This document shows, one piece after another, positions 3,497 to 37,288 of a stretch of DNA of 37,288 bases. Source of the DNA: a virus; UHGV virus genome UHGV-1407012. One strand, 5' to 3'. How positions within the stretch are numbered: position 1 is the first letter of the stretch; every line of letters begins with the position of its first letter. The notes below the pieces were generated by a model. It made no database searches, was not told the origin of the DNA, and was given only the letters and a program-made list of their open reading frames with translations. Both the position numbers and the translations under genes were made by a program.

Positions 3497-4465
3497 TTAG
3501 TAGGTTATTTTTGTTGCGAATACTTCGCCTTTTACGATGGCTGTTATGATATTTTTAGCAATATCTTCTGATGCGCCAACCTTGATAAGGTCAGCAAGTA
3601 TTTTGTTATTTACTTCTTTCCGGTGAGCTTTATCCTTTGCTCTACGCTCTTCTTCGTCCTTGATTCTTTTTTCTTCTGCTATTCTGGCTTGCTCTTTTGC
3701 TTCAGCCTCGCGACGGATTCGTTCAGCCTCCTCCTGTGCTTTTCTGCGTTCTGCTTCAATTGCTGCCTGCTTTTCTCTTTCAGCTCGTTCTGCTGCCTCT
3801 TTTGCTTCGCGCTGTGCTCGTTGCTCGGCTTCAATGCGTTCACGCTCTGCACGTTCCGCTGCGGCCTTAGCTTCTGCTTCTCGCCTTGCTGCTGCTTCAA
3901 TTTCGGCTTTTGCCTTTGCTTCGGCTTCTGCTCTGGCTTTCTCTTCAGCTTCTCTTTTTAATCGTTCTTCATGCTCTCGCTTTTCCTGCTCCGCTTTGAG
4001 TCTTGCCTCTTCTCTTTGGCGGTCAAATTCGCGATCCATCAAAATCGCTATTTCATGGTCAGACTCAATTTGCTTTGCGAGAGCTTCAGCTGCTGCCTTA
4101 GCTTCTTCTTCGGCTTTAATCCGCGCCTGTTCTTCCTCATAATCAGTAAGAGGCTGGCGCGCCTTGGCTTTCAGTTCATCAAGGCGATCACGCACCGTCT
4201 TGCGGTTGGCATCAATTAGCTTTGGAATTTCCTTCAGTTCAGCAACAAGGTCTTTGCCAAGACCATCGAGATATGTTTTCGTCTGTGCAACTTTAAACGC
4301 CAGAGAAGCGATCTCCTTTCTGCCCTTTGCCGTTGTGATATCAGGCACAAAGGACATAACTTCACGTTCAACCTTTTGGAGAATTTCTTCAATCTGGTCA
4401 GCAGACTGAAATACAATCATTGCATTTGCTTTTTCAATAACAACTAAATCTGTTACTTCACTCAT
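3497..4465 (-). CDS. Coiled-coil protein with long Glu/Ala/Arg/Lys low-complexity repeat (322 aa)
   Basis: ATG 4465 with GGAGG RBS (track ORF extends to TTG at 4519); about 150 aa of EAKA/RREAE heptad-like repeats between structured N- and C-terminal regions. Confidence 0.7.
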   Translation of the reverse strand: MSEVTDLVVIEKANAMIVFQSADQIEEILQKVEREVMSFVPDITTAKGRKEIASLAFKVAQTKTYLDGLGKDLVAELKEIPKLIDANRKTVRDRLDELKAKARQPLTDYEEEQARIKAEEEAKAAAEALAKQIESDHEIAILMDREFDRQREEARLKAEQEKREHEERLKREAEEKARAEAEAKAKAEIEAAARREAEAKAAAERAERERIEAEQRAQREAKEAAERAEREKQAAIEAERRKAQEEAERIRREAEAKEQARIAEEKRIKDEEERRAKDKAHRKEVNNKILADLIKVGASEDIAKNIITAIVKGEVFATKITY

Positions 4466-4599
4466 ATATCCTCCATCAAAAAAATCGCCCTCACATTGGA
4501 GGGCAAAGAAGATTTCCAATAATCAGAACAAGTCGGCTCCTGTTTAGTTACGAGCGACATTGCTCCGTGTATTCACTCGTTGGAATGAATACACAGTGC

Positions 4600-8335: not shown

Positions 8336-9163
8336 ATGGGGTATGTCTCTATACACCGCCAGTTTATGGACAGCAGGCTCTATAAGGACTCTCAGGCAGT
8401 ACATCTTTGGCTTCACTTAATCCTCAAGGCTAATCACGAATCTACTGTCGTCAATACGGATATCGGGCCGATAACTGTTGATCGCGGTCAGATGATAACT
8501 GGACGCCCGTCGCTGGTCAGAGAAACATTCATCCCCGACAACAAAGTTCGGAGCTTATTACGGACTTTTGAGTCGAAAGGGATGCTTAATATTTGCTCGA
8601 TGGGGAAGAAATTTAGCCTGTTTACAATCGTTAAATATGACGATTTTCAGGCAAAAAATTGTCCAACGGTTGTCCAACGGTTGTCCAACGCAAACACCAG
8701 TAATGGCGCGGCTCTCAGCGGAGATTGTCCAACGGTTGTCCAACGGTTGTCCATAAACAATAATATAAATAATATCTCTAATACTGACGTATTAGAGAGT
8801 GCCACAGCAGACAAAAAGTCTGACAAGAAAAAACCTTCCGTTAGCTGTCAGGATGTTGTCGATGCTTACCACGAAATCCTTCCTGAAGCGCCAAAAATCC
8901 GCGCACTGAATGACAAGCGTAAAAACCAGATCCGAACGTTCTGGCGCAAAGCCGGAGTGATAACCCGCCAGCTTGACGGGCATGGGTTCACGATGCAGGA
9001 CTGGAGAAATTATTTGAGCTACGTAGGCGAAAATTGCCGATGGATGTTCGAAGAGCGTCCAAACCATCAACGCGGAACCGTCTGGCACAAAAAGGGATTT
9101 GATTTCCTGCTTAACGATAATACCTACCTGAAAGTTCGTGAGGGTGAACACGATGACCGATAA
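8336..9163 (+). CDS. Replication initiator (lambda O / P22 gp18 functional analogue) carrying the origin iterons
   Basis: ATG 8336 with AGGAGG RBS (track ORF starts 8273); iterons and AT-rich tract inside the gene; followed by the helicase gene. Confidence 0.75.
   Translation: MGYVSIHRQFMDSRLYKDSQAVHLWLHLILKANHESTVVNTDIGPITVDRGQMITGRPSLVRETFIPDNKVRSLLRTFESKGMLNICSMGKKFSLFTIVKYDDFQAKNCPTVVQRLSNANTSNGAALSGDCPTVVQRLSINNNINNISNTDVLESATADKKSDKKKPSVSCQDVVDAYHEILPEAPKIRALNDKRKNQIRTFWRKAGVITRQLDGHGFTMQDWRNYLSYVGENCRWMFEERPNHQRGTVWHKKGFDFLLNDNTYLKVREGEHDDR
8659..8757. repeat. Origin iterons: six 11-bp TTGTCCAACGG-type direct repeats in two triplets, followed by an AT-rich tract
   Basis: Triplets at 8659..8691 and 8725..8757; AT-rich 8757..8790; encode the repeated peptide CPTVVQRLS. 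Confidence 0.7.
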
Positions 9164-11411: not shown

Positions 11412-11808
11412 ACTAAGAAGCCCCATCCATCAGCAGAACGCCATTCAAGCTATCCAGCAAATCCTTCCAGACCCAACCAAACCAATCGTAGTAACCATTC
11501 AGGAACGCAACCGCAGCATTCGGCAAAATGCACGCCTTCACGCGATGCTATCTGAAATAAGTAAGAAGGCTACATATCATGGAAAAGCAAGAAATATTGA
11601 GTTTTGGAAGGGGTTATTCGTTTCTGGTTGGCAGATTGCAACCAACCAGCACCCTGAGATTATATCAGGGTTAGAAGGTGAGCTAATAAACATCAGAGAG
11701 AGTACAGCGACTCTATCTGTAAAAAAAATATCCGAAATAATGGACTACATAGAAGCATATTGTGCCATGAACTCAATTCATCTTAGCGAATGGAGGAATT
11801 ATGATTGA
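11392..11808 (+). CDS. ninB: NinB (Orf family recombination mediator), C-terminally truncated by an HNH insertion
   Basis: N-terminal ~110 aa (MRKLTFELRSPIHQQNAIQAIQQILPDPTKPIVVTIQERNRS...) track lambda NinB as recalled; frame ends ...SEWRNYD. Confidence 0.8.
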   Translation: MRKLTFELRSPIHQQNAIQAIQQILPDPTKPIVVTIQERNRSIRQNARLHAMLSEISKKATYHGKARNIEFWKGLFVSGWQIATNQHPEIISGLEGELINIRESTATLSVKKISEIMDYIEAYCAMNSIHLSEWRNYD

Positions 11809-12403
11809 GGTTTGGGTAGATATCGAAGGGATTCCATTTTATCAGGTTAGCAATAAAGGAAATTTCAGGTCTATTACGAGGGAGGTTACAGTAACATCAA
11901 CCAGACAGAGGCCATATAAGAAAATAATTAATGGCACTAGTGTAAAACCATTCATGTGCAAGTCGACAGGATATCTTCAAATAAAGGTATACGGTAAGAA
12001 ATACAGCGCCCACAGGATAGTTGCGAAAGCATTCTGTACAGGGTTCTGTGATGGCTTGGTAGTTAATCACAAAAATGGGCGAAGAGATGACAATAGGGCT
12101 GATAACCTTGAATGGGTATCACATTCTGAAAACTCAAAACACGGATATAAACAAAATGGAAGAATACCTGTATCGCTAGGTAAATTTAGTGGTGACCATC
12201 CTGCCAGTAAAGCTGTTATTTCTACTGACATGAAAACTGGGGAGGAGGTTTATTATGAAGCAGCTATGGATGCTGTCAGAGAAGGATTTGATAGTTCGTC
12301 AATTAGTCGTTGCTGTAATGGCGAAAGCTCATATCACAAAGGAAGATTCTGGCGATTTGCAAATGAAACAATGAAAGCGCGATGGGGAGACAGGGCTGCA
12401 TGA
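11801..12403 (+). CDS. HNH homing endonuclease (NUMOD4-like N-terminus plus HNH_3-like domain) whose last ~15 codons derive from the ninB 3' end
   Basis: [17 protein letters not shown] and [25 protein letters not shown] motifs; C-terminus ...[10 protein letters not shown] matches the lambda NinB C-terminus; own GGAGG RBS; AT-rich. Confidence 0.8.
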
Positions 12404-17736: not shown

Positions 17737-18174
17737 ATGGCGCGCCCAACAAAGTATCAAGAGGCGTACGCCGAACAGGCACGCAAACTGTGCTTGCTGG
17801 GCTACACCGATGCAGAGCTTGCTGATTTCTTCGAAGTCAGTGAGTCAACTATTAACAAGTGGAAGCTTGATTATCCTAAGTTTTCGGAGTCCATAAAAAA
17901 GGGTAAGGCCGTCGCTGATGCAGAAGTTAGTGATCGTCTTTATCAACGCGCTATGGGCTTCGTGGCTCCAGACATCGATATTCGTGTTATTGAAAACAGA
18001 ATTGTCGAAACTCCGCTTGAGAAGTATTACCCGCCTGATACAACAGCTGCCATCTTCTGGCTTAAGAACCGACAGAAGGATAAATGGCGCGATAAGCAAG
18101 AAGTTGAACACACCGGAGAGGTTAACCTGATTCAGCGCATTCAGGAGGCCAGAAAACGCGCGAGAGGTGAGTAA
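17737..18174 (+). CDS. Terminase small subunit (HTH-containing, Sf6-like type)
   Basis: HTH LGYTDAELADFFEVSESTINKWK; position directly upstream of TerL with TAATG junction. Confidence 0.65.
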   Translation: MARPTKYQEAYAEQARKLCLLGYTDAELADFFEVSESTINKWKLDYPKFSESIKKGKAVADAEVSDRLYQRAMGFVAPDIDIRVIENRIVETPLEKYYPPDTTAAIFWLKNRQKDKWRDKQEVEHTGEVNLIQRIQEARKRARGE

Positions 18175-19634
18175 TGTCGTCAGAATTCGAGGCAATGCTT
18201 GCCGATGATATGGGGCGATTCTTTTACGATCCGCTTGGCTTCGTTATGTATGCGTTTGATTGGGGAACTGGTGAGCTTGAGGGCTTTGACGGACCCGATG
18301 AATGGCAGAAAGAGTTTCTGACAGATTGGGGAGACGCAATCAGGACTAATAACTTCGACGGTGTTAAACCTGTTGAAGCCTATCGTTGCGCTACCAGCTC
18401 TGGTCACGGTATCGGTAAAAGTGCTCTAACTGCCTGGGTCATTCTGTACATCCTCAGCACTCGTCCTTTCTGCAAGGGCGTCGTGACAGCCAATACCTCT
18501 GAACAGCTTCGCACCAAAACATGGGGCGAGCTGGGCAAGTGGAAGAAGCGGTGCATCACCGGTCACTGGTTTGAGTACAACAACGGAAAAGGCAACATGA
18601 ACATCTACCATGTGGATCACATGGAATCATGGCGCTGTGACGGCCAGACGTGTCGGGAAGAGAACAGCGAGTCATTTGCTGGCCTGCATGCAGCTAACTC
18701 AAGCCCGTTCTACATCTTCGATGAAGCCTCAGCGGTTCCTGACAAAATTTGGGAAGTAGCAGAGGGCGGCCTTACTGACGGCGAGCCTTTCTGGTTTGCA
18801 TTTGGGAACCCGACGCGTAACACCGGTCGATTCCGAGAGTGCTTCCGCAAGTTCAAACACCGATGGCGTCGACGTCAAATTGATAGCCGCCTGGCAAAGA
18901 TGACCAACAAAGAGCTCATCGAAGAGTGGCGCAAGGATTACGGTGAAGACAGCGACTTCTTTAAAGTACGTGTTCGCGGTCTATTCCCATCGACATCAGA
19001 AGTCCAGTTCATACCTCAGGCATATGTGGATGAGGCCATGTCTCGCACGCTTGAACCCGGCTCTTACACATTCGCATCCAAAATAATCGGCGTTGACCCT
19101 GCTTACACAGGTAGTGATGAGGCATCAATTTACCTTCGCCAGGGTCTTCATGCGCGCCTGCTTGGCACCTACCCGAAAACAGATGACGACGTTAAGTTCG
19201 CGCAAATCGTCGCAGGATTTGAGGATGAGCATAAGGCAGATGCAGTGTTCATAGACTTCGGGTATGGCACCGGAATTCACTCAATAGGTAGGTCGTGGGG
19301 AAGGAAGTGGCAGCTGGTTAACTTTGGGGGTGAATCCAAAGACCCCGGCATGCTGAACAAGCGCGGTGAGATGTGGAACTCAATGAAGTCATGGCTCAAA
19401 GAAGGGGGAAGTATCGATGATCAGCAAACAGCTGACGAAATCGTTGCTCCTGAGTACAGGGTTAAGCTCGATGGGCGCATCGTCCTTGAGGCCAAAGATG
19501 ACATGAAGCGCCGTGGGGTTCCTTCACCAAACCGCGCTGATGCGTTAGCCCTGACGTTTGCATTCCCGGTAGTCAAAAACAAACCAACTAAGCCATTACC
19601 GGCTCCAATTCGTCCAATTTCCAGAGGTAGATAA
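18174..19634 (+). CDS. Terminase large subunit
   Basis: 486 aa; Walker-A-like [10 protein letters not shown]; acidic nuclease-domain motifs; stop overlaps the portal start. Confidence 0.85.
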
Positions 19635-21454
19635 TGGCCGACCAAGACGACAAATTGCGAACCATTCTCCTTCGGTTTGACAGGGATTGGGCAGCAAGCG
19701 ATGAGGCCAGAACCGAGGCGACAAATGACCTGTATTTTAGCCGAGTGTCGCAATGGGATGACTGGCTATCAAACTACACCACCCTGCAATATCGCGGACA
19801 ATTCGATGTTGTCCGCCCGGTGGTCAGGAAGCTGGTCGCAGAGATGCGCCGGAACCCTATCGACGTTCTCTTCCGACCAAAAGACGGTGCTAATCCTGAT
19901 GCAGCCGATGTATTGATGGGTATGTATCGTACTGATATGCGCCATAACACGGCAAAGATTGCCGTTAACGTTGGCGTTCGTGAGCAGATAGAGTCCGGCG
20001 TTGGTGCATGGCGTCTGGTCACACAGTACGAAGACAACGACCCAACAAGCAACAATCAGGTAATCCGACGCCTTCCAATCCATGAAGCCTGCTCACACGT
20101 CATATGGGACGCAAACAGCAAGCAGATGGATAAGAGCGACGCTAAGCACTGCACGGTGATTAACGCCTTGTCGCGCAATGGCTGGAAAGAGTTCGCAGAG
20201 GATTACGGTATTGATCCTGACACCCTGCCATCTTTCCAGAATCCGAACGATACATGGCTGTTTCCGTGGGTATCGAATGATGTCGTCTACGTCGCTGAGT
20301 ATTACGAGGTCGAAGAGAAGAAGGAGAAAGTCTTCATCTACCGCGACCCGCTGACAGGTGAGCCGGTCAGCTATTACCAGCAGGATATCAAAGACGTCAT
20401 CGACGACCTGGCTAATCGTGGATTCATTAAGGTAGCAGAGCGTAAGGTGAAGCGTCGTCGTGTGTATAAGTCGATCATCACCTGCACGCAGATACTGAAA
20501 GACCGAGAAAAGATAGCCGGAGAGCATATCCCAATCGTTCCAGTGTATGGAGAATGGTCATTCGCTGGTGACAAGGAGTGCTACGAGGGAGTGGTAAGGC
20601 TGACGAAAGACGGGCAGCGACTTCGCAACATGATTATGTCGTTCAACGCCGACATCGTGGCGCGGAACCCTCAGAAGAAACCTTTCTTCTATCCAGAGCA
20701 GATTGCCGGTTATGAGCACATGTACGGTGGCGATGACGCCTATCCGTACTATCTCATCAATCGCACTGATGAAAACGGAGCTGATCTACCGCCAACGCCA
20801 GTTGCGTACATGGAGGAGCCTCAGGTTCCGCAGGCCAACGCCTACATGCTTGAGGCCGCCACCGCTGCAGTGAAGGAAGTCGCTAGCCTTGGCGTTGATG
20901 CTGAGGCTGCAAACGGGCAGGTGGCTTTCGATACCGTCAATCAACTGAACATGCGGGCAGACCTTGAGACATACGTGTTTCAGGATAACCTGGCTACCGC
21001 AATGCGGCGTGATGGCGAGATTTATGCCTCAATGGTCAATGATATTTATGACGTTCCTCGTCATGTAACGCTGACACTTGAAGATGGAAGCGAGAAAGAC
21101 GTTCAACTCTATGCGCAAGTTGTCGATTACCAGTCCGGCAATGTGGTCACACTCAACGACATTCGCGGTCGCTACGAGTGCTACACCGACACCGGCCCAT
21201 CATTCCAGAGCATGAAGGAGCAGAACCGCGCAGAGATTCAGGAGTTGCTCACCAAGGTTCCGCAAGGTACTCCAGAGTTCCAGATGCTGATGCTGCAATA
21301 CTTCACGCTGCTTGACGGTAAAGGCGTCGAGATGATGCGAGAGTACGCGAACAAGCAACTGGTGATGATGGGGCTGAAGAAACCAGAAACACCTGAAGAG
21401 ATGGAGATGGTACAGCAGGCTCAACAGCAGCCGCAGCAGCCATCAGCAGCGTAA
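19634..21454 (+). CDS. Portal protein (P22 gp1-type), ending at the first of three in-frame TAA codons
   Basis: 606-aa ORF closely resembling the P22 portal core as recalled ([26 protein letters not shown]...[13 protein letters not shown]...). Confidence 0.85.
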
Positions 21455-21466
21455 ATTTAAGGGTAA

Positions 21467-21802
21467 GGTATCCTTCTGCAAGGTCAGGCTGAATTGCTCA
21501 AGGCAGAGAACCAACAGGCGCAGATTCAGGTTGAAGCCGCCAAGGTTGAAGCCCAAAACCAACTCAACGCCGCGAAGATTGCGGAAATCTTCAACAATAT
21601 GGACCTCGACAAGCAGGCAGAACTGCGTGAGTACCTCAAGCTCGTAGGTCAATTCCAGCAACAGCGCAGCAAAGATGCTCGTGCTAACGCTGAGCTGCTT
21701 CTTAAAGATGCAGACCAGACTCATTCACAACGCATGGATTTCGCGAATCTTATGCGTCAAGTTCAAATCCCCTCCGGCGGAGTAGCCGAGACACCTCAAT
21801 AA
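21467..21802 (+). other. Portal C-terminal barrel-homologous segment, same frame as the portal, separated from it by TAA-ATT-TAA-GGG-TAA
   Basis: [47 protein letters not shown]...SGGVAETPQ is colinear with the C-terminal helical barrel of P22-type portals; first possible start is TTG at 21494. Confidence 0.6.
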
Positions 21803-21815
21803 GAGAGAGTTAACC

Positions 21816-22727
21816 ATGGACCAAACCACCGACATTCAGGCTTCTGAAGAATTAACCCTGCCCGGCAATCATGCAGCGGCATCTGCTGATGGCTTAGTTG
21901 TCGATAATGCCAACGACAACGCAGGTCAGGAAGAAGGCTTCGAGATTGTCCTGAAAGACGATGAGAAACCAAAACAAGACCCGGCAACTAATGCTGAATT
22001 TGCCCGTCGCCGCATCGAACGCAAACGCCAGCGTGAGCTTGAGCAGCAGATGGAAGCGGTTAAGCGAGGAGAGTTGCCGGAGCACCTGCGGGTGAACCCT
22101 GAGTTACCAAAACAACCAGACCCTAACGATTATCTTTCCGAAGATGCACTGGCTAAGTACGACTATGACCAGAGCCGCGCACTGGCTGCCTTCCAGCAGG
22201 CAAACAGTGAATGGCAGATCAAGGCTATGGACGCACGAAGCCAGGCTGTCGCCGAGCAGGGTCGCAAAACTCAGGAGTTCACCCAGCAATCAGCGCAATA
22301 CGTCGAGGCAGCCCGTAAGCACTACGACGCAGCGGAAAAGCTCAATATCCCTGACTATCAGGAGAAAGAGGATGCATTCATGCAACTGGTGCCGACAGCA
22401 GTCGGTGCCGACATCATGCGCCTCTTCCCGGAGAAATCCGCCGCTCTCATGTATCACCTTGGTGCTAATCCTGAGAAAACACGCCAGTTGCTGGCGATGG
22501 ACGGGCAATCCGCGCTGATTGAGCTCACTCGACTGTCAGAACGTTTAACTCTCAAGCCTCGAGCCAAGCCTGTTTCAGAAGCCCCGTTACCTGATGAACC
22601 CATTCAGGGACACGCTGTTGCTGCAAATATTTCTGCGATTGAAAAGCAGATGGAAGCGGCAGCAAACAAAGGGGATGTAGAGACGTACCGCAAGCTCAAG
22701 GCGCAACTGAATAAAGGAATTCGATAA
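21816..22727 (+). CDS. Scaffolding protein (P22 gp8-type)
   Basis: 303 aa, acidic and helical, colinear with P22 scaffold as recalled; position between portal and coat. Confidence 0.8.
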
Positions 22728-24022
22728 TGGCATTAAATGAAGGTCAACTGGTCACGTATGCTCTGGATGAAATCATCGAAACCGTCCAGAATCTGACGCC
22801 AATGGCGTCCAAAGTGACAAAATACACCCCTCCGGCAGAATCCATGCAGCGTTCAAGCAACACCGTGTGGATGCCTGTTGAGCAGGAAGCGCCAACTCAG
22901 ACTGGCTGGGATTTAACTGGCAACGCTACCGGGATTCTGGAACTCTCCGTGAAATGCAACATGGGCGATCCGGATAACGATTTCTTCGAGCTTCGTGCAG
23001 ATGACCTGCGTGATGAGCGTTCTTACCGTCGCCGCATCCAGGCATCCGCCAAAAAACTGGCGAATAACATTGAGTCAGCAATTGCCAAACAGGCAACCGA
23101 AATGGGCTCACTTGTTGTTCACGATACCCGCGCAATTGGTCCATCTACTGGCCTGTCTGGCTGGGATTTTGTGTCTGATGCAGAGCGCCTGATGTTCTCC
23201 CGTGAGCTAAACCGCGATATGGGCATCAGTTACTTCCTGAACCCTGACGATTACCGCAAAGCAGGCCGCAACCTGGTAGATGGTGACATCTTCGGTCGCG
23301 TTCCTGAAGAAGCGTATCGCAACGGTACTATTCAGCGTCAGATTGCTGGCTTTGATGAAATTCTTCGCTCACCGAAACTTCCGGCAGTTACCAAGTCAAC
23401 CGCTACTGGTGTAACTGTTTCTGGTGCGCAGAAGTTTAAGCCGCAGGCATACACCCTTGATACCGATGGTAACAAAGAGAACGTCGACAACCGTGTTGCA
23501 ACGGTGACCGTATCCTCCACCACCGGATTTAAGCGCGGCGACAAAATCAGTTTCACTGGTGTGAAATTCCTGTCTCAGATGGCGAAGAACGTGCTGACTG
23601 ATGATGCTACTTTCTCAATCACCCGTGTGATCGATGGTACTCACATCGAAATTACGCCGAAACCGATTGCACTGGATGACGCGTCACTGACAAAAGAAGA
23701 GAAGGCTTACGCTAACGTAAACACCTCTCTTGCTGATACCACTCCGGTAAACGTTCTGAACGTGGCAACAACCACCGCTAACGTGTTCTGGGCTGATGAC
23801 TCAATCCGCCTGCTGTCTCAGCCGATTCCGGTAACCCATAAACTGTTTGCTGGCATGAAAACGTCTTCCTTCAGCATTCCTGGTATTGGTGTTAACGGAA
23901 TCTTCGCAACGCAGGGTGATATCAACACTCTGTCTGGTAAGTGCCGTATTGCTGTGTGGTATTCAGCATGTGCTGTACGACCAGAGGCAATTGGTGTTGG
24001 TCTGCCTAACCAGACCGCGTGA
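22727..24022 (+). CDS. Major coat protein (P22 gp5-type, HK97 fold)
   Basis: 431 aa, [22 protein letters not shown]... colinear with P22 coat as recalled. Confidence 0.85.
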
Positions 24023-24065: not shown

Positions 24066-24671
24066 ATGAGCGTAATGATTTTTCAGGCTGGCGGAGATAC
24101 CAAAATCTGGGGGCGCAAGCTGAAAACGAAAACCGTTGATCCTGATGATGTAGCTGTGCACTTAGCAAATGGCTGGTATAAGCACCCTGACGATGTTCCT
24201 GATGATCCTCTTGTTGGTGATCAAATTGGGAGTGTTGGCGGAGGTGAAACTTCCCCAGTTGATATGGGCGAAGTGTCCGACGGTTATCACACTTTTAACG
24301 AGCTTTACGCTCACCGAGTGCGGCTCTTCTCATCGCTGATGCATGCTTACGCTGAGCTTTCGTGGTGGTCTCGCAAACACAGTGACGGTGAAGAGTGGGA
24401 TGGCTGGATCATTGCTGGTATCACCACTCCAGAAGGCGAAATCACTTATCACCTACCTGTTGAAGAAATCGAGTTCCTTCCTGAAGGTACTGAGCTTGAG
24501 TTCGGGAAAGAGTGGGATGGTCATGAAGCAAATGATGTTCTTGGACGACTCCTGAGTTTGCGTCCGGCTATTGCAGAGCCAGAGCCAGAGCCAGAGCCAG
24601 AAGAAAAACAGCGTAAAAAGCCTGGTCGAAAACCTAAGGCGGCAGCAGATGAACCTGACAACGAAGGGTGA
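24066..24671 (+). CDS. Acidic hypothetical protein with PEPEPEPE linker and basic tail (201 aa); apparent inserted gene between coat and gp4
   Basis: ATG 24066 with GGAG RBS inside track ORF 23886..24671; own terminator upstream; 3' end overlaps the gp4 start by 23 nt. Confidence 0.6.
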
Positions 24672-32163: not shown

Positions 32164-32284
32164 CCTTGATGCCTCACCAGTTTGGTGGAATGGCATCGTA
32201 ACCTACTGGATAAATACTCAATAGTACCATTTCGGTATGCAATCACATCATGGTTGCATCATATCATTCGTCTGGAGCAATGAA

Positions 32285-33952
32285 ATGTCAGATATCACCG
32301 CAAATGTTGTGGTAAGCATGCCTTCGCAACTCTTCACTATGGCTCGTTCTTTTAAAGCTGTAGCCAATGGCAAAATTTATATCGGAAAAACTGACACTGA
32401 CCCGGTAAATCCTGAAAACCAGATTCAGGTTTATATGGAGAGCGAAGACGGCTCTCACGTTCCTGTTTCGCAACCAATCATCATTAACGCTGCTGGTTAC
32501 CCTGTATATAATGGACAGATTGCCAAATTCGTTACCGTGCAAGGCCATTCTATGGCTGTTTATGATGCGTACGGTGCGCAGCAGTTTTATTTTCCGAATG
32601 TACTGAAGTACGACCCGGATCAGCTTGAGCAGCGTCTTGCATCATCAATAGGTTCTTCCATGGTTGGCATTACCGATGGAAGGACAGTGCATGATTTTAT
32701 ATCTGTTGATGACTATCAGAGAATTGGTGATATCCGTGGTTACGGGGCGACAAATGAAAACGTAAACCCTGTCAACATTGCCGTTGCCACAGGTGAGGCC
32801 AATGGTCTACTGAAGGTACCTAATGGAGTATGGAGCGGTAATTTTGAGTTAAAAAATAAAACTAGCATAACTGGTGAATCCATAACATCAACAGTTGTTA
32901 ACGTTCCTATAAACACGATCGGAATAAAGCCTGAGGGCTCTGACGTTAGAGGGATTACTATATCAAACATGAATCTCCAAGTTAACGGATCTGTTGCTGG
33001 CGGTCCTCCTGTTGGTAGCGGGGTCGGAATAGACATGTCTTTTTGCGGAAAGGCAGTTAACTGTGAGTTTAACAACCTTTATCTCGATTTCTTTGATATT
33101 GGTTACAACGCTGGATATGCTGATTTTTCAAATATTTATAACAATATGAGGTGCAATAACAACCGAATCGGGATTAACCTATCCAGTAACGGAACAATTA
33201 TTCAAAACGTGTTCAATGGGTGTTATGTTGCAAACTGGACGGCTTATGCCGTGAAAGTTTCTGGCGCTAGCAACCAGATATTCAACGCGCTTAACATGGG
33301 ACATAACGGGTCCGCCAATGCTTATTTCCTGCAGATAGATACGAACTCAAGAGGAATCATATTTAATCAACCTAACTTCGAAATGGACGTTGCAAACGGG
33401 AAAATTACAGCAGGAAGCCAGGCTATCGTGGTCGCCTCTAGTTCTGAGGTTACATTTAACTCCCCGACATTCAACAGGGTTAACGCTGCAGGGGCAAATG
33501 CCTACCTGTTCCGGGTTAGGGGTAACGCTATAGTACGTATAAACGACCCTCAAATCTACAACGACGATGGCACAATAGGTCACCTAATTATCAGTGATGA
33601 AGCTGTTGTTTATCTCAATGATCCAAATCGAATATTCACAGTAATTACTATCCAAGGTAATGGGAGGCTAATACGTGTTGACGAGAAGATATCAAACTCC
33701 CCTAACTATACAAACATTCTTACTTTAAAATCTGGAGACATAATTAACTTTGGATTCTATGCAAGATATGCAATGGCGGTTCCAGATTTTCACTCCAATA
33801 CTATGCCATCACCATTCAAGTACGCAGTGAGCTTTGACACTTACCATAGCAGTGGAACTGCCATTGCTCGAGTGTATGATACAACCACAGGAAATGGAGT
33901 ATCAAACATCAATGTTACATGTTTCGTACAGGCGTGGAGAGAGGATAGATAA
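32285..33952 (+). CDS. Tailspike: P22 gp9-like head-binding N-domain fused to a different beta-helix receptor-binding domain
   Basis: N-terminal ~110 aa ([11 protein letters not shown]...[13 protein letters not shown]...VLKYDPDQ) P22-like; remainder Asn/Gly/Ser/Thr-rich repeats typical of parallel beta-helix; ATG 32285 inside track ORF 32237..33952. Confidence 0.85.
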
Positions 33953-33984
33953 AAATAGGGCGGTTTCCCCGCCCTATTTTTATA
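33953..33984. terminator. Bidirectional rho-independent terminator shared by tailspike (+) and acyltransferase (-)
   Basis: ATAGGGCGG-tttcc-CCGCCCTAT stem flanked by A-run and T-run. Confidence 0.7.
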
Positions 33985-35047
33985 CTGTAACTAAATTGTC
34001 TTCATTTCTATTGGTTTTTCTTTTTAATTTAAGAAAATGTATTTCAAAAAGATAGTATGATGCAATTGATACTATATATGCGATAGCAAACCCACATGCT
34101 ATTATCACAGCATTATTGTTTACTCCAAACAAGGAGGACATTTTGTTTGCAATTGAAAAACACAGCAAATGCCACATATACAAACCATAACTTATCTTTC
34201 CTGTAAATGTTAATGGCTTTAATGATAATGCTTTTGTTATTATTTGTTTTTTCCCTAGCACACTCCACTTGTAAATGAAAAAAATTGCAGATGAAAAAAT
34301 CATCCCAAACGCTGTAAACATATACCAGCATTTCCCAGCCCAATCTACAGGGTTCCAAAAAGCATTAAGACCAACAGAATTTATTCCATTAAGAACCAGC
34401 CCAACACCTGCTATAAAAGTTAAAAATCCTGATTCATATGCGTACTTCTCATCTTTTATCTTTGAAAACAGAGCGCCAAGAACTAACATGTCAATGCAAC
34501 TGATAAGAGTTACATTTACAATGTATGGGTTTCCATCAGTGATTTGAAATATAAAATATCTTGATATACTTGATGTTATTATTAGTATAATAAAAATCAG
34601 ATTCATATTCTTTTTGTTTATGAAAAATATGAATAGAGGCCAAAGCCAGTAAAATTGTTCTTCCACTGCAAGAGACCAGGTGTGCCCCAAAATTCCAGGT
34701 GTTGTAACATTTATTCCTATATAATAGTTTTGTAGATAAGTTATAAACCACAAATAACCATCCGTTGGTTTCCCAGTTGCAATTAGAAGAATAAAGTTAA
34801 CAAGTAGGTAAGCATAAAATAACGGGAATATTCTAAGAGATCTATTTATAAGAAATCGTTTAATATAGTTACTAAAACCAGAGTCTTTATCCTCGATAAG
34901 GATTGAGGTAATTAAGAAACCAGATAAGCAAAAGAACAGCGGAACTCCAGACCAACCAAGAGAAAATCCTGAAACTTTGGCATGAAAAAGCATTACAATG
35001 AGCACCGCAATACCTCTCACACCATCTAAAGATTGTATATGTTTCAT
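33980..35047 (-). CDS. oac: Acyltransferase-3 family integral membrane O-antigen O-acetyltransferase (serotype-conversion type)
   Basis: N-terminal MKHIQSLDGVRGIAVLIVMLFH signature, about 10 TM helices, strongly AT-rich relative to the phage backbone; location between tailspike and int. Confidence 0.85.
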   Translation of the reverse strand: MKHIQSLDGVRGIAVLIVMLFHAKVSGFSLGWSGVPLFFCLSGFLITSILIEDKDSGFSNYIKRFLINRSLRIFPLFYAYLLVNFILLIATGKPTDGYLWFITYLQNYYIGINVTTPGILGHTWSLAVEEQFYWLWPLFIFFINKKNMNLIFIILIITSSISRYFIFQITDGNPYIVNVTLISCIDMLVLGALFSKIKDEKYAYESGFLTFIAGVGLVLNGINSVGLNAFWNPVDWAGKCWYMFTAFGMIFSSAIFFIYKWSVLGKKQIITKALSLKPLTFTGKISYGLYMWHLLCFSIANKMSSLFGVNNNAVIIACGFAIAYIVSIASYYLFEIHFLKLKRKTNRNEDNLVTV

Positions 35048-35237: not shown

Positions 35238-36395
35238 TTACTCCACCTTTTCATCAATCCAGTCCGCCCACCACTGCATCATTTCTCTGCGCTTATCGAG
35301 ATACTGAGCATGGTTGTAAATCCCACGCACAGATCCGCCGTTGGCATGTGCCAGTTGCACTTCAATGGCGTCGGCAGGCCATTCGTGCTCGTTCATAATC
35401 GTGCTGAATTCATGCCTGAATCCGTGACCGCTTTCCAGCCCCTCATAGCCGATTTGTTTGATCACAAGCAATACCGCGTTCTCGCAGATTGGCTTCTTCT
35501 TATCGTTGCGTCCGGCAAAAACAAACTCTGATACCGGTTTAGTGATTGAGCTTAGCGTAGTGAGAAGTTCAATAACCTGGTCCGACATAGGAACCACATG
35601 AATCTTGCGTCCCTTCATCACATTGGCGTCGATGGTGATAATCCTGTTTTCAAAATCGACGTTCTTCCATTGCATGGAACGAAGCTCTTTCGTTCTTAGG
35701 GCTGTATAGCGTAAAACCTTGGTCGCAATGAGCGATACGATGCTTCCTGAAAATGTTGCCAGTGCTTTGTTAAATGCCGGGATCTGGTCTGCAGGAAGAA
35801 ACGGGAAGTTTTTCTTGCGGTATCCCTTCATGGCGTCAGCAAGGTCAGGTGCCGGGTTATATTTAGCCCTGCCGGTGACAATAGCGTAACGGAAAACCTC
35901 GCCGCATCTTCTGCGGGCTTTATTTGCTCGCTCCATTGCACCGCGATCTTCAAATCTGCGGATTACTTCCAGCAGTTGCATCGGCTCAATATCCTGAATC
36001 TCAAGACCGCCGATGATGGGTAAAATGTCGTCATCAAACATTTTGGCAAGTTCAGTTGCATAGCCTACTGACCAGACTTGCTTCTTGTGCTCGTACCATT
36101 CCTTGTAAATCGCACTAAAGGAATTGTTGTTAGACGAAGCCTTTTTCGCCTTTACCGGATCGATGCCGACCGAGATGTCTTTCCTCGCAGTCCATGCTTT
36201 ATCCCTTGCCTCTTGCAAAGTCATAAGCGGATATTTTCCGACGGTCAGGATTTTCTCCTTACCGTCAATCTTGTAGCGAAGCTGCCATACCTTTTTCCCG
36301 GATACAGGGACATAAAGGTACAGGCCATTACCATCGAGTAGGCGGTATGGTTTTTCTTTCGGCTTTGCTGCTTCAATCTGCTTAACAGTGAGCAT
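35238..36395 (-). CDS. int: Tyrosine integrase, P4-type with N-terminal arm-binding domain
   Basis: LTVKQIEAAKPKEKPYRLLDGNGLYLYV N-domain; catalytic HGFRH and C-terminal Tyr region; ATG 36395 (track start 36431 is GTG). Confidence 0.85.
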   Translation of the reverse strand: MLTVKQIEAAKPKEKPYRLLDGNGLYLYVPVSGKKVWQLRYKIDGKEKILTVGKYPLMTLQEARDKAWTARKDISVGIDPVKAKKASSNNNSFSAIYKEWYEHKKQVWSVGYATELAKMFDDDILPIIGGLEIQDIEPMQLLEVIRRFEDRGAMERANKARRRCGEVFRYAIVTGRAKYNPAPDLADAMKGYRKKNFPFLPADQIPAFNKALATFSGSIVSLIATKVLRYTALRTKELRSMQWKNVDFENRIITIDANVMKGRKIHVVPMSDQVIELLTTLSSITKPVSEFVFAGRNDKKKPICENAVLLVIKQIGYEGLESGHGFRHEFSTIMNEHEWPADAIEVQLAHANGGSVRGIYNHAQYLDKRREMMQWWADWIDEKVE

Positions 36396-36399
36396 GGGT

Positions 36400-36640
36400 A
36401 AAAATCCGGTGGGTAAAATTATTTTATCCACTTTTTACCCGTCATGGAGTACGGCTGTCAACGATCTGACGCGAACCATTACGAACTGTGAATCTACGGA
36501 AGGCTTGATATTCAGGGGATTTTGCGGACTGGTACGGATGGGAGCGAACTGATAAATGGTGTCCCCTGCAGACATCTACTTGACGCGGCAGGGGATTGAT
36601 TGGAATGATGTTTTTTAGATGTGAGAAATATTTTACCCGC
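36400..36640. repeat. int-xis intergenic region with five copies of TTTTACCC/GGGTAAAA in both orientations (candidate recombinase arm-type or regulatory sites)
   Basis: Copies at about 36406, 36415, 36440, 36620 and 36631, the last two as a tandem TATTTTACCC pair. Confidence 0.3.
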
Positions 36641-36644
36641 TATT

Positions 36645-36845
36645 TTACCCATTGGCGCGGCTTAAAAGCTTATTCTTGAATTCACAATGGTCACGATATA
36701 ACCATCTTGCTCGCCCGTGGATAACTTTGGCTTTAGGCAGGTCTCCGGACTTAATCCGGTCATAGATGAAGGTTTTACCGAAGCCAGTATCGGCCATGAT
36801 GAATTTCAAATCAACCAGTGAATCAGGCTGTAGTTCGTGTTGCAT
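36645..36845 (-). CDS. xis: AlpA-family excisionase/transcriptional regulator
   Basis: 66 aa with HTH ...LVDLKFIMADTGFGKTFIYDRIKSGDLP... and conserved Trp; upstream of int on the same strand. Confidence 0.7.
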   Translation of the reverse strand: MQHELQPDSLVDLKFIMADTGFGKTFIYDRIKSGDLPKAKVIHGRARWLYRDHCEFKNKLLSRANG

Positions 36846-36968
36846 GAGTGCTATCTCCGAATAGGGAATCGAACCTGCAAATCAGGCAATAAAAAACCGC
36901 ATTGATGCGGCGATGGTAGGTCTGGATATCATTGAGCAATGAACAGGCCTCATCGAGTGTGAGGCGGG

Positions 36969-37288
36969 TTAGTCCTTGCGTAGCTCGCTGATTCTTCTGT
37001 AAGTCTCTGGTGCTTTGTTTCCGTGTATCTTCATTTCAGACTTCAACAGAGCAACGAGGGAATCCCATTCGTTGAGGATTCCTTTGAATGCCGGAACGCG
37101 CTTTGCAACCTTGTTGAATGAATCTCTGATTTCTGGAATCTGCTCAACAAGTGCAACGCATCGTCTGAAATCTGCTGCGTCATGTGGAGCGCCGAAGTGA
37201 TGACCATAGATATTCTTTTTCACGTCCCAGGCGCTTGAGGCAAGAGTTGCGCTACTGATGCCGTCATCGCCGGTCGATTGCCATTTCA
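36969..37288 (-). CDS. Hypothetical protein, 5' truncated by window edge (C-terminal about 106 aa present)
   Basis: Frame of track ORF 36969..37223 stays open upstream to the window end; the track start is an internal GTG. Confidence 0.45.
   Translation of the reverse strand, partial: KWQSTGDDGISSATLASSAWDVKKNIYGHHFGAPHDAADFRRCVALVEQIPEIRDSFNKVAKRVPAFKGILNEWDSLVALLKSEMKIHGNKAPETYRRISELRKD

Follow-up and report, generated by a model that had tools for sequence, protein, structure and literature searches.

The portal protein (gp1) of Salmonella phage P22 consists of a core of residues 1-602 and a C-terminal helical barrel of residues 603-725, and the core alone (portal-602) was crystallised bound to gp4 (PMC5290284). 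Contacts with the ejection proteins and with the DNA packaged last have been proposed for the barrel (PMC4992974; PMC5290284). The P22 mutant dif1, in which gp1 lacks residues 676-725, is viable and still incorporates the ejection proteins, for which binding sites N-terminal to residue 676 have been proposed (PMC4992974). In solution, the isolated barrel (602-725) was a monomer with only partial helicity (PMC5290284). The present analysis concerns the portal gene of UHGV virus genome UHGV-1407012, a stretch of 37,288 nucleotides (nt) referred to as the window, in which three in-frame ochre (TAA) codons interrupt the portal reading frame close to the boundary between core and barrel. The six-codon block carrying them (21449-21466) was very probably replaced deliberately, as a designed, reversion-proof triple-ochre allele that would give a barrel-less portal.

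Direct reading of window 21449-21469 gave GCG TAA ATT TAA GGG TAA GGT in the frame of the portal open reading frame (ORF) 19634..21454, which encodes 606 amino acids (aa) with the C-terminus ...QQPSAA; this confirmed the ORF and the TAA codons at 21452, 21458 and 21464 described in the initial annotation. The ORF matched PF16510 (P22_portal) with E=1.2e-159 and 533 bits, residues 13-604 lying on positions 2-573 of the 594-position model. Beyond the stops the same frame contained 111 open codons before a TAA at 21800-21802 (...SGGVAETPQ), and the colinearity with the P22 barrel claimed for this segment was borne out by its alignment with residues 613-725 of structure 3lj5.

A near-isogenic natural prophage was found in the ENA metagenome assembly ERZ1745512 as contig NODE_92 (42,456 bp), which was reached via the exact coat, gp16 and DnaB proteins of the window and matches window 1-36571 save for 12 bases. 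Identity was 100.000% with 0 mismatches over window 1-20589, and exactly 7 mismatches, all within the patch at the stops, were present over window 12727-34022. Up to 36571 there were 5 further differences, all synonymous and all in the integrase gene on the minus strand, where they formed two adjacent-codon pairs at 35469-35472 (codons 320 and 321) and 35871-35874 (codons 186 and 187). Both integrase alleles were frequent among natural contigs and every combination was present, so these differences represent standing polymorphism and served as an internal control for natural difference; engineered silent marks at 35469-72 and 35871-74 were ruled out, both alleles being common in nature. The portal of NODE_92 was called at 722 aa. 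The features of the portal gene in the window are as follows.

19634..21454, plus strand: portal core ORF, 606 codons and the first TAA, corresponding to about residues 1-607 of P22 gp1 (wing, stem, stalk and crown)
21450..21466, plus strand: patch, very probably edited, with 7 substitutions in 17 nt against NODE_92 and all relatives
Portal gene patch: patch-bearing sequence GCGTAAATTTAAGGGTAA; 27-mer CAGCGTAAATTTAAGGGTAAGGTATCC
21452..21454, plus strand: ochre stop 1, replacing CAA (Gln607), aligned to P22 M608
21458..21460, plus strand: ochre stop 2, replacing CAG (Gln) by two hits, aligned to P22 Q610
21464..21466, plus strand: ochre stop 3, replacing CAG (Gln) by two hits, aligned to P22 Q612
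21467..21802, plus strand: portal remainder, predicted silent, 111 codons and the native TAA, the C-terminal helical barrel of P22 residues 613-725, intact
21494..21802, plus strand: ORF called mechanically from an in-frame TTG inside the barrel segment, 102 aa

The wild-type codons GAG CAA ATT CAG GCG CAG were replaced in the window by GCG TAA ATT TAA GGG TAA. The three first-position C-to-T changes assumed initially therefore account for part of the patch, which comprises the following seven substitutions.

21450: A>C, codon position 2
21452: C>T, codon position 1
21458: C>T, codon position 1
21460: G>A, codon position 3
21462: C>G, codon position 2
21464: C>T, codon position 1
21466: G>A, codon position 3

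The codon outcome was 3 nonsense, 2 missense (E>A and A>G) and 0 synonymous changes. All three Gln codons of the block became TAA, and both CAG codons did so by two hits although a single hit would have yielded TAG. Of the seven changes, five were C:G>T:A transitions with the strands alternating, and two were transversions. With the background rate taken from the five integrase differences to NODE_92, the probability of 7 differences in a 17-nt window was P ~7e-23, or ~3e-18 when corrected for all windows. Triple stops in alternate codons are in themselves common, about 10 being expected by chance across the six frames of the shuffled window; the patch was the only one flanked by long open frames (607 codons before and 111 after) and the only one made of TAA throughout.

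A sequencing, assembly or data-handling artefact (consensus error, chimeric read or file corruption) would mean that the real codons are wild type. The allele is known from one sequence only and the remaining window is identical to a natural contig, which would suit such an error. The patch consists of substitutions without any indel, lies outside homopolymers and known methylation motifs, and is confined to six codons in a codon-aware manner with three identical in-frame stops, while random corruption ignores the reading frame; an artefact is accordingly considered quite improbable.

The closest phages (HZ41, IME10 and Bas106) and 219 E. coli genomes showed 97-98% identity at the locus and all read GCA GAG CAA ATT CAG GCG CAG GGT, that is A-E-Q-I-Q-A-Q-G. 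The peptide AAQIQGQG, obtained when CAA is restored at the three stops, was thus not the wild type, the flanking and intervening codons being altered as well (E>A and A>G). The check proposed initially, whether relatives carry CAA at the three codons, showed Gln at all three positions, encoded by CAA, CAG and CAG. Among 123 IMG/VR contigs with the exact 13-nt and 17-nt flanks, 117 carried AGCAAATTCAGGCGCAG and 6 were one base off, and none of the 123 had a stop at the patch. All of the approximately 97 aligned portal genes read through the patch point, as did distant lineages (77-79% DNA identity), and the portal protein family was uniformly 721-723 aa long. In each of the 309 recorded blocks containing the exact TerL protein, the gene after it encoded a 722-aa portal. 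The initial annotation had named close relatives that naturally end the portal at this point as evidence that would speak against an interrupted gene; the 123 IMG/VR relatives, the approximately 97 portals, the TerL neighbours and NODE_92 all reach 721-723 aa. Every relative therefore joins the core and a C-terminal helical barrel of some 120 residues in a single polypeptide of 721-725 aa, while the frame in the window stops after residue 606.

The patch was absent from the RefSeq complete E. coli genomes, IMG/VR, the GTDB representative genomes and the JGI metagenome contigs, and the bare patch 20-mer was absent from IMG/VR. The 606-aa product was not on record among 153 billion public gene positions, and no match to the window at >98% identity was obtained in INPHARED phages, RefSeq E. 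coli complete genomes or IMG/VR. Within 12727-36571 the patch was the only stretch with 21-mers not common to any of 313 natural loci. The 333-nt barrel segment was nucleotide-identical to NODE_92 and at least 8 natural relatives and amino-acid-identical in 81 of 96; no time appears to have elapsed under relaxed selection downstream of the stops. A decaying pseudogene would show scattered lesions and relaxed constraint, whereas 0 barrel differences from natural relatives were found and the other genes were intact. The features of an engineered allele were present, namely an otherwise identical wild type, clustered, frame-respecting and redundant stops, and absence of the allele from natural populations.

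A second private cluster of substitutions was observed in the portal gene at 21184-21220, where 6 bases are found in none of 97 close relatives and are shared by NODE_92. It comprises five synonymous third-position changes and the conservative V520T, and a 30-mer of it occurred exactly in two distant IMG/VR portal genes (77-79% identical). This cluster seems to have arisen naturally, as a mosaic or gene-conversion patch. Its interpretation as a second engineered mark was ruled out, the changes being synonymous apart from V>T and the exact 30-mer being present in the two distant natural contigs.

These comparisons also bear on a natural origin, in which a very recent multi-nucleotide mutation (an error-prone repair patch, templated mutation or micro gene conversion) struck the portal of a resident prophage as a first step of decay. 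The nearest relative is an integrated prophage, prophages often decay, C:G>T:A transitions make up five of the seven changes, and the cluster at 21184-21220 proved natural; that cluster is, however, opposite in signature (five synonymous changes and V>T) and is present in other lineages, while the patch was never found in the natural collections searched. In about 36.5 kb there are 0 non-polymorphic differences apart from the seven hits in 17 nt, every Gln codon of the block was turned into TAA (two by double hits), and strand-alternating transitions with two transversions are unlike deaminase clusters or mutagenesis of the diversity-generating retroelement (DGR) type. Natural mutation was accordingly judged very unlikely. 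As for templated mutation or gene conversion in particular, no donor for the 15-mer or 20-mer was present in the window with up to 2-3 mismatches, nor for the bare 20-mer in IMG/VR. There is at most a slim chance that a templated or targeted mutagenic process, of the host or of a competing element, rewrote the six portal codons in one event, as a "stop-writing" form of phage inactivation or domestication; if true, stop-writing would yield a barrel-less portal or a split core and barrel.

Stop-codon reassignment in phages, such as TAG to Gln, is known in some crAss-like and Lak phages, and the patch resembles it in having stops where homologues have Gln. Programmed readthrough, suppression or reassignment at the locus would decode TAA (for example as Gln) and produce core-only and full-length portals, as the initial annotation had considered under the name of two portal isoforms. 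All three stops occupy Gln positions of the relatives and the downstream frame is intact. Reassignment in phages involves many genes genome-wide and suppressor tRNAs, whereas a single locus is affected here. TAA ends 20 of the 37 window genes checked, including the portal at its native end, and is the commonest genuine stop; neither a tRNA or suppressor gene nor an Rfam recoding element was found in the window, and no relative has a stop at this point, hence there is no conservation. Consecutive ochre codons would also multiply an already low readthrough, given termination by the release factors RF1 and RF2. Because TAA is the main terminator and neither a tRNA nor an Rfam element is present, suppression and reassignment were set aside, and the probability left to them is practically negligible.

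A functional split was also considered, in which core and barrel are made as two polypeptides and the barrel, re-initiated at TTG 21494 or a near-cognate codon, acts in trans. The in-frame TTG lies 40 nt past the first stop with AGG 5 nt upstream of it, and the patch itself holds AAGGG and AAGG, which are Shine-Dalgarno-like. The sequence from 21467 onward is the same as in the relatives, so no start or ribosome-binding site has been created or evolved there; the initial annotation had noted no obvious ribosome-binding site at TTG 21494. No relative shows such a split. The isolated P22 barrel is monomeric (PMC5290284), thus an untethered barrel would be unlikely to assemble on the portal. A functional split is highly improbable, and TTG 21494 could only be a weak, accidental re-initiation site. 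The segment 21494-21802 should not be annotated as a separate gene, and the 606-aa ORF should not be annotated as a natural short portal.

Ala606, the last residue of the truncated product, aligned to A607 of P22 gp1, and residues 1-601 aligned with residues 1-601 of the P22 structures 3lj5, 4v4k (602 aa) and 5jj1 (610 aa), the last with 12 identical portal chains per entry. The position of the stops, described initially as exactly at the core/barrel junction, is so approximately: the cut falls after the equivalent of P22 A607, 5 residues past the 1-602 core. Judged from the reading frame, portal translation must end after Ala606, and the product would be a portal core without the C-terminal helical barrel of about 116 residues, the DNA of which remains in frame and undamaged and is presumably silent. 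The truncated portal would be expected to form a ring, because it matches the crystallised P22 portal-602 core in nearly every residue position, and to bind the gp4 homologue. The functions of the barrel in contacting ejection proteins and last-packaged DNA and in genome retention or delivery would be lost. Since the last 50 residues are dispensable in P22 but the proposed ejection-protein sites are N-terminal to residue 676, removal of the whole barrel is, by analogy, likely deleterious.

The P22 portal-602 constructs (4v4k/3LJ4 with gp4, and 5jj1) share the same crown/barrel boundary within 5 residues. They are plasmid constructs of Salmonella phage P22 gp1, whereas the present allele lies in a whole E. 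coli phage genome, consists of three stops and keeps the barrel DNA. The dif1 mutant is likewise a C-terminal portal truncation within a phage genome; it loses the last 50 residues and is viable, while the present allele would lose about 116, including the proposed ejection-protein-binding part, and its viability is doubtful. Classical amber and ochre mutants and engineered stop knock-ins likewise place in-frame stops at sense (Gln) codons of an essential structural gene. Classical nonsense mutants have one stop from one base change and are suppressor-conditional, in contrast to three stops and two missense changes in 17 nt, which are not practically suppressible. A suppressor-dependent conditional mutant, another of the possibilities raised initially, is therefore implausible with three consecutive ochres and no tRNA gene in the window.

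Of the origins first suggested, a deliberately built or selected triple-nonsense, barrel-less allele was the one that the evidence favoured. A designed origin is indicated because all Gln codons were changed to TAA, the CAG codons by two-hit routes, with no template in the window or in viral contigs, with the rest of the genome wild type and with the cut at a known domain boundary. As two non-Gln codons were also changed, giving seven substitutions, replacement of a short block by design is more likely. Three ochre codons would make the block effectively non-leaky and non-revertible, because each UAA is recognised by RF1 as well as RF2 and no fewer than 3 independent hits would be required to revert the block. 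The idea that the two missense changes were meant to introduce a diagnostic restriction site was ruled out, since the sites gained or lost through the patch all belong to 4-5-base cutters and no 6-cutter site is among them; that the missense changes serve to evade mismatch repair or a Cas9 guide is conjecture. Cytidine base editing in the style of CRISPR-STOP (bioRxiv 10.64898/2026.05.19.726188) was rejected, as the opposite-strand G>A changes and the A>C and C>G changes misfit a one-strand deaminase window. Such an edit may have been introduced at the bench (by oligo recombineering, by editing selected with clustered regularly interspaced short palindromic repeats (CRISPR), or in a synthetic genome) or may have been written into a sequence file.

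Several points weigh against a designed replacement. The literature search found no paper or record describing this allele, the additional missense changes GAG>GCG and GCG>GGG have no demonstrable purpose, and the cut is not exactly on the P22 602 boundary. The closest relative is a wild metagenome prophage and not a known laboratory phage. The comparison with NODE_92 spans 1-36571, and further edits are possible in 36572-37288 (717 nt) as well as in an early-left "ea" region, estimated at about 1.4 kb, that is missing between the end and the start of the window.

In the laboratory, removal of the barrel from a P22-type portal at its boundary with the crown is established practice, and the biological addition is accordingly small, with no new natural mechanism indicated. 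The designed replacement provides a clean example of an engineered lesion recognisable from sequence alone, as a codon-aware cluster in a genome otherwise identical to a wild relative, and such a signature helps to pick out manipulated sequences in public data or screening data. Should the phage exist physically, it would be a non-revertible coliphage reagent for barrel function in vivo, with which headful sensing, retention of the last-packaged DNA, docking of the ejection proteins and genome delivery, so far addressed mostly by structural work, could be approached.

The portal gene lies between the genes for TerL and the scaffolding protein in the morphogenesis operon, and the gene order TerL, portal, scaffold, coat is P22-like. 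The neighbouring genes are as follows.

18174..19634, plus strand: large terminase TerL, 486 aa, directly upstream of the portal
21816..22727, plus strand: scaffolding protein, 303 aa, PF09306, directly downstream
22727..24022: coat, after the scaffold

Translation of the scaffold is unlikely to suffer from the early portal stops, because its own start is located 14 nt past the native portal stop.

The genome is otherwise that of a natural temperate, argW-integrating, P22-like (Lederbergvirus-type) coliphage. Beyond the position equivalent to window 36571, NODE_92 continues into tRNA-Arg(CCT) (argW) and then an FNT-family host gene and the window continues into phage DNA, so the window represents the excised (attP) form. 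The attP core was located at window 36553-36571 (…GGTGTCCCCTGCAG), listed with L140 16742-16816, in keeping with an argW-integrating, IntS-type prophage. Position 1 of the window lies inside a DUF551 gene (L319 350-1012, minus strand), and the last 717 nt (36572-37288) are unlike the 848 nt that precede the window-start point in NODE_92. Either the window is an excerpt of a longer circular genome or the sequence is broken at that junction.

Other genes of the window showed the following features. The tailspike gene (32237-33952) is a 571-aa ORF with the P22 head-binding domain at residues 17-129; the exact 571-aa protein is not on record despite identical DNA because the NODE_92 call starts later (555 aa). 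Between the tailspike and integrase genes, at 33980-35047 on the minus strand, there is a 355-aa Acyl_transf_3 gene with a GC content of about 32% against about 50% in the flanks, which probably encodes an O-antigen acetyltransferase for lysogenic conversion. At 24066-24671, between the genes for coat and gp4, lies a gene for a 201-aa WDGH-domain protein (PF25311) whose basic tail is rich in Pro and Glu; this variable moron slot is occupied in relatives either by a gene of about 80 aa or by a WDGH gene. The nin region contains a 200-aa NUMOD4/HNH homing-endonuclease-like gene at 11801-12403 (Pfam annotation, NODE_92 gene calls), and the relatives have HNH genes at various other positions, including beside the portal and scaffold genes. 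A 340-aa ORF (322 aa in relatives) without a Pfam match is present at 3497-4519 on the minus strand and consists of degenerate GCTTC-rich repeats (families D1 and D3), which suggest an early-left protein rich in Ala, Glu and Lys that is probably a coiled coil. At 8647-8753, six copies of an 11-bp tandem iteron (TTGTCCAACGG), arranged in two groups, lie within the gene for the 296-aa replication initiator and mark the presumptive replication origin.

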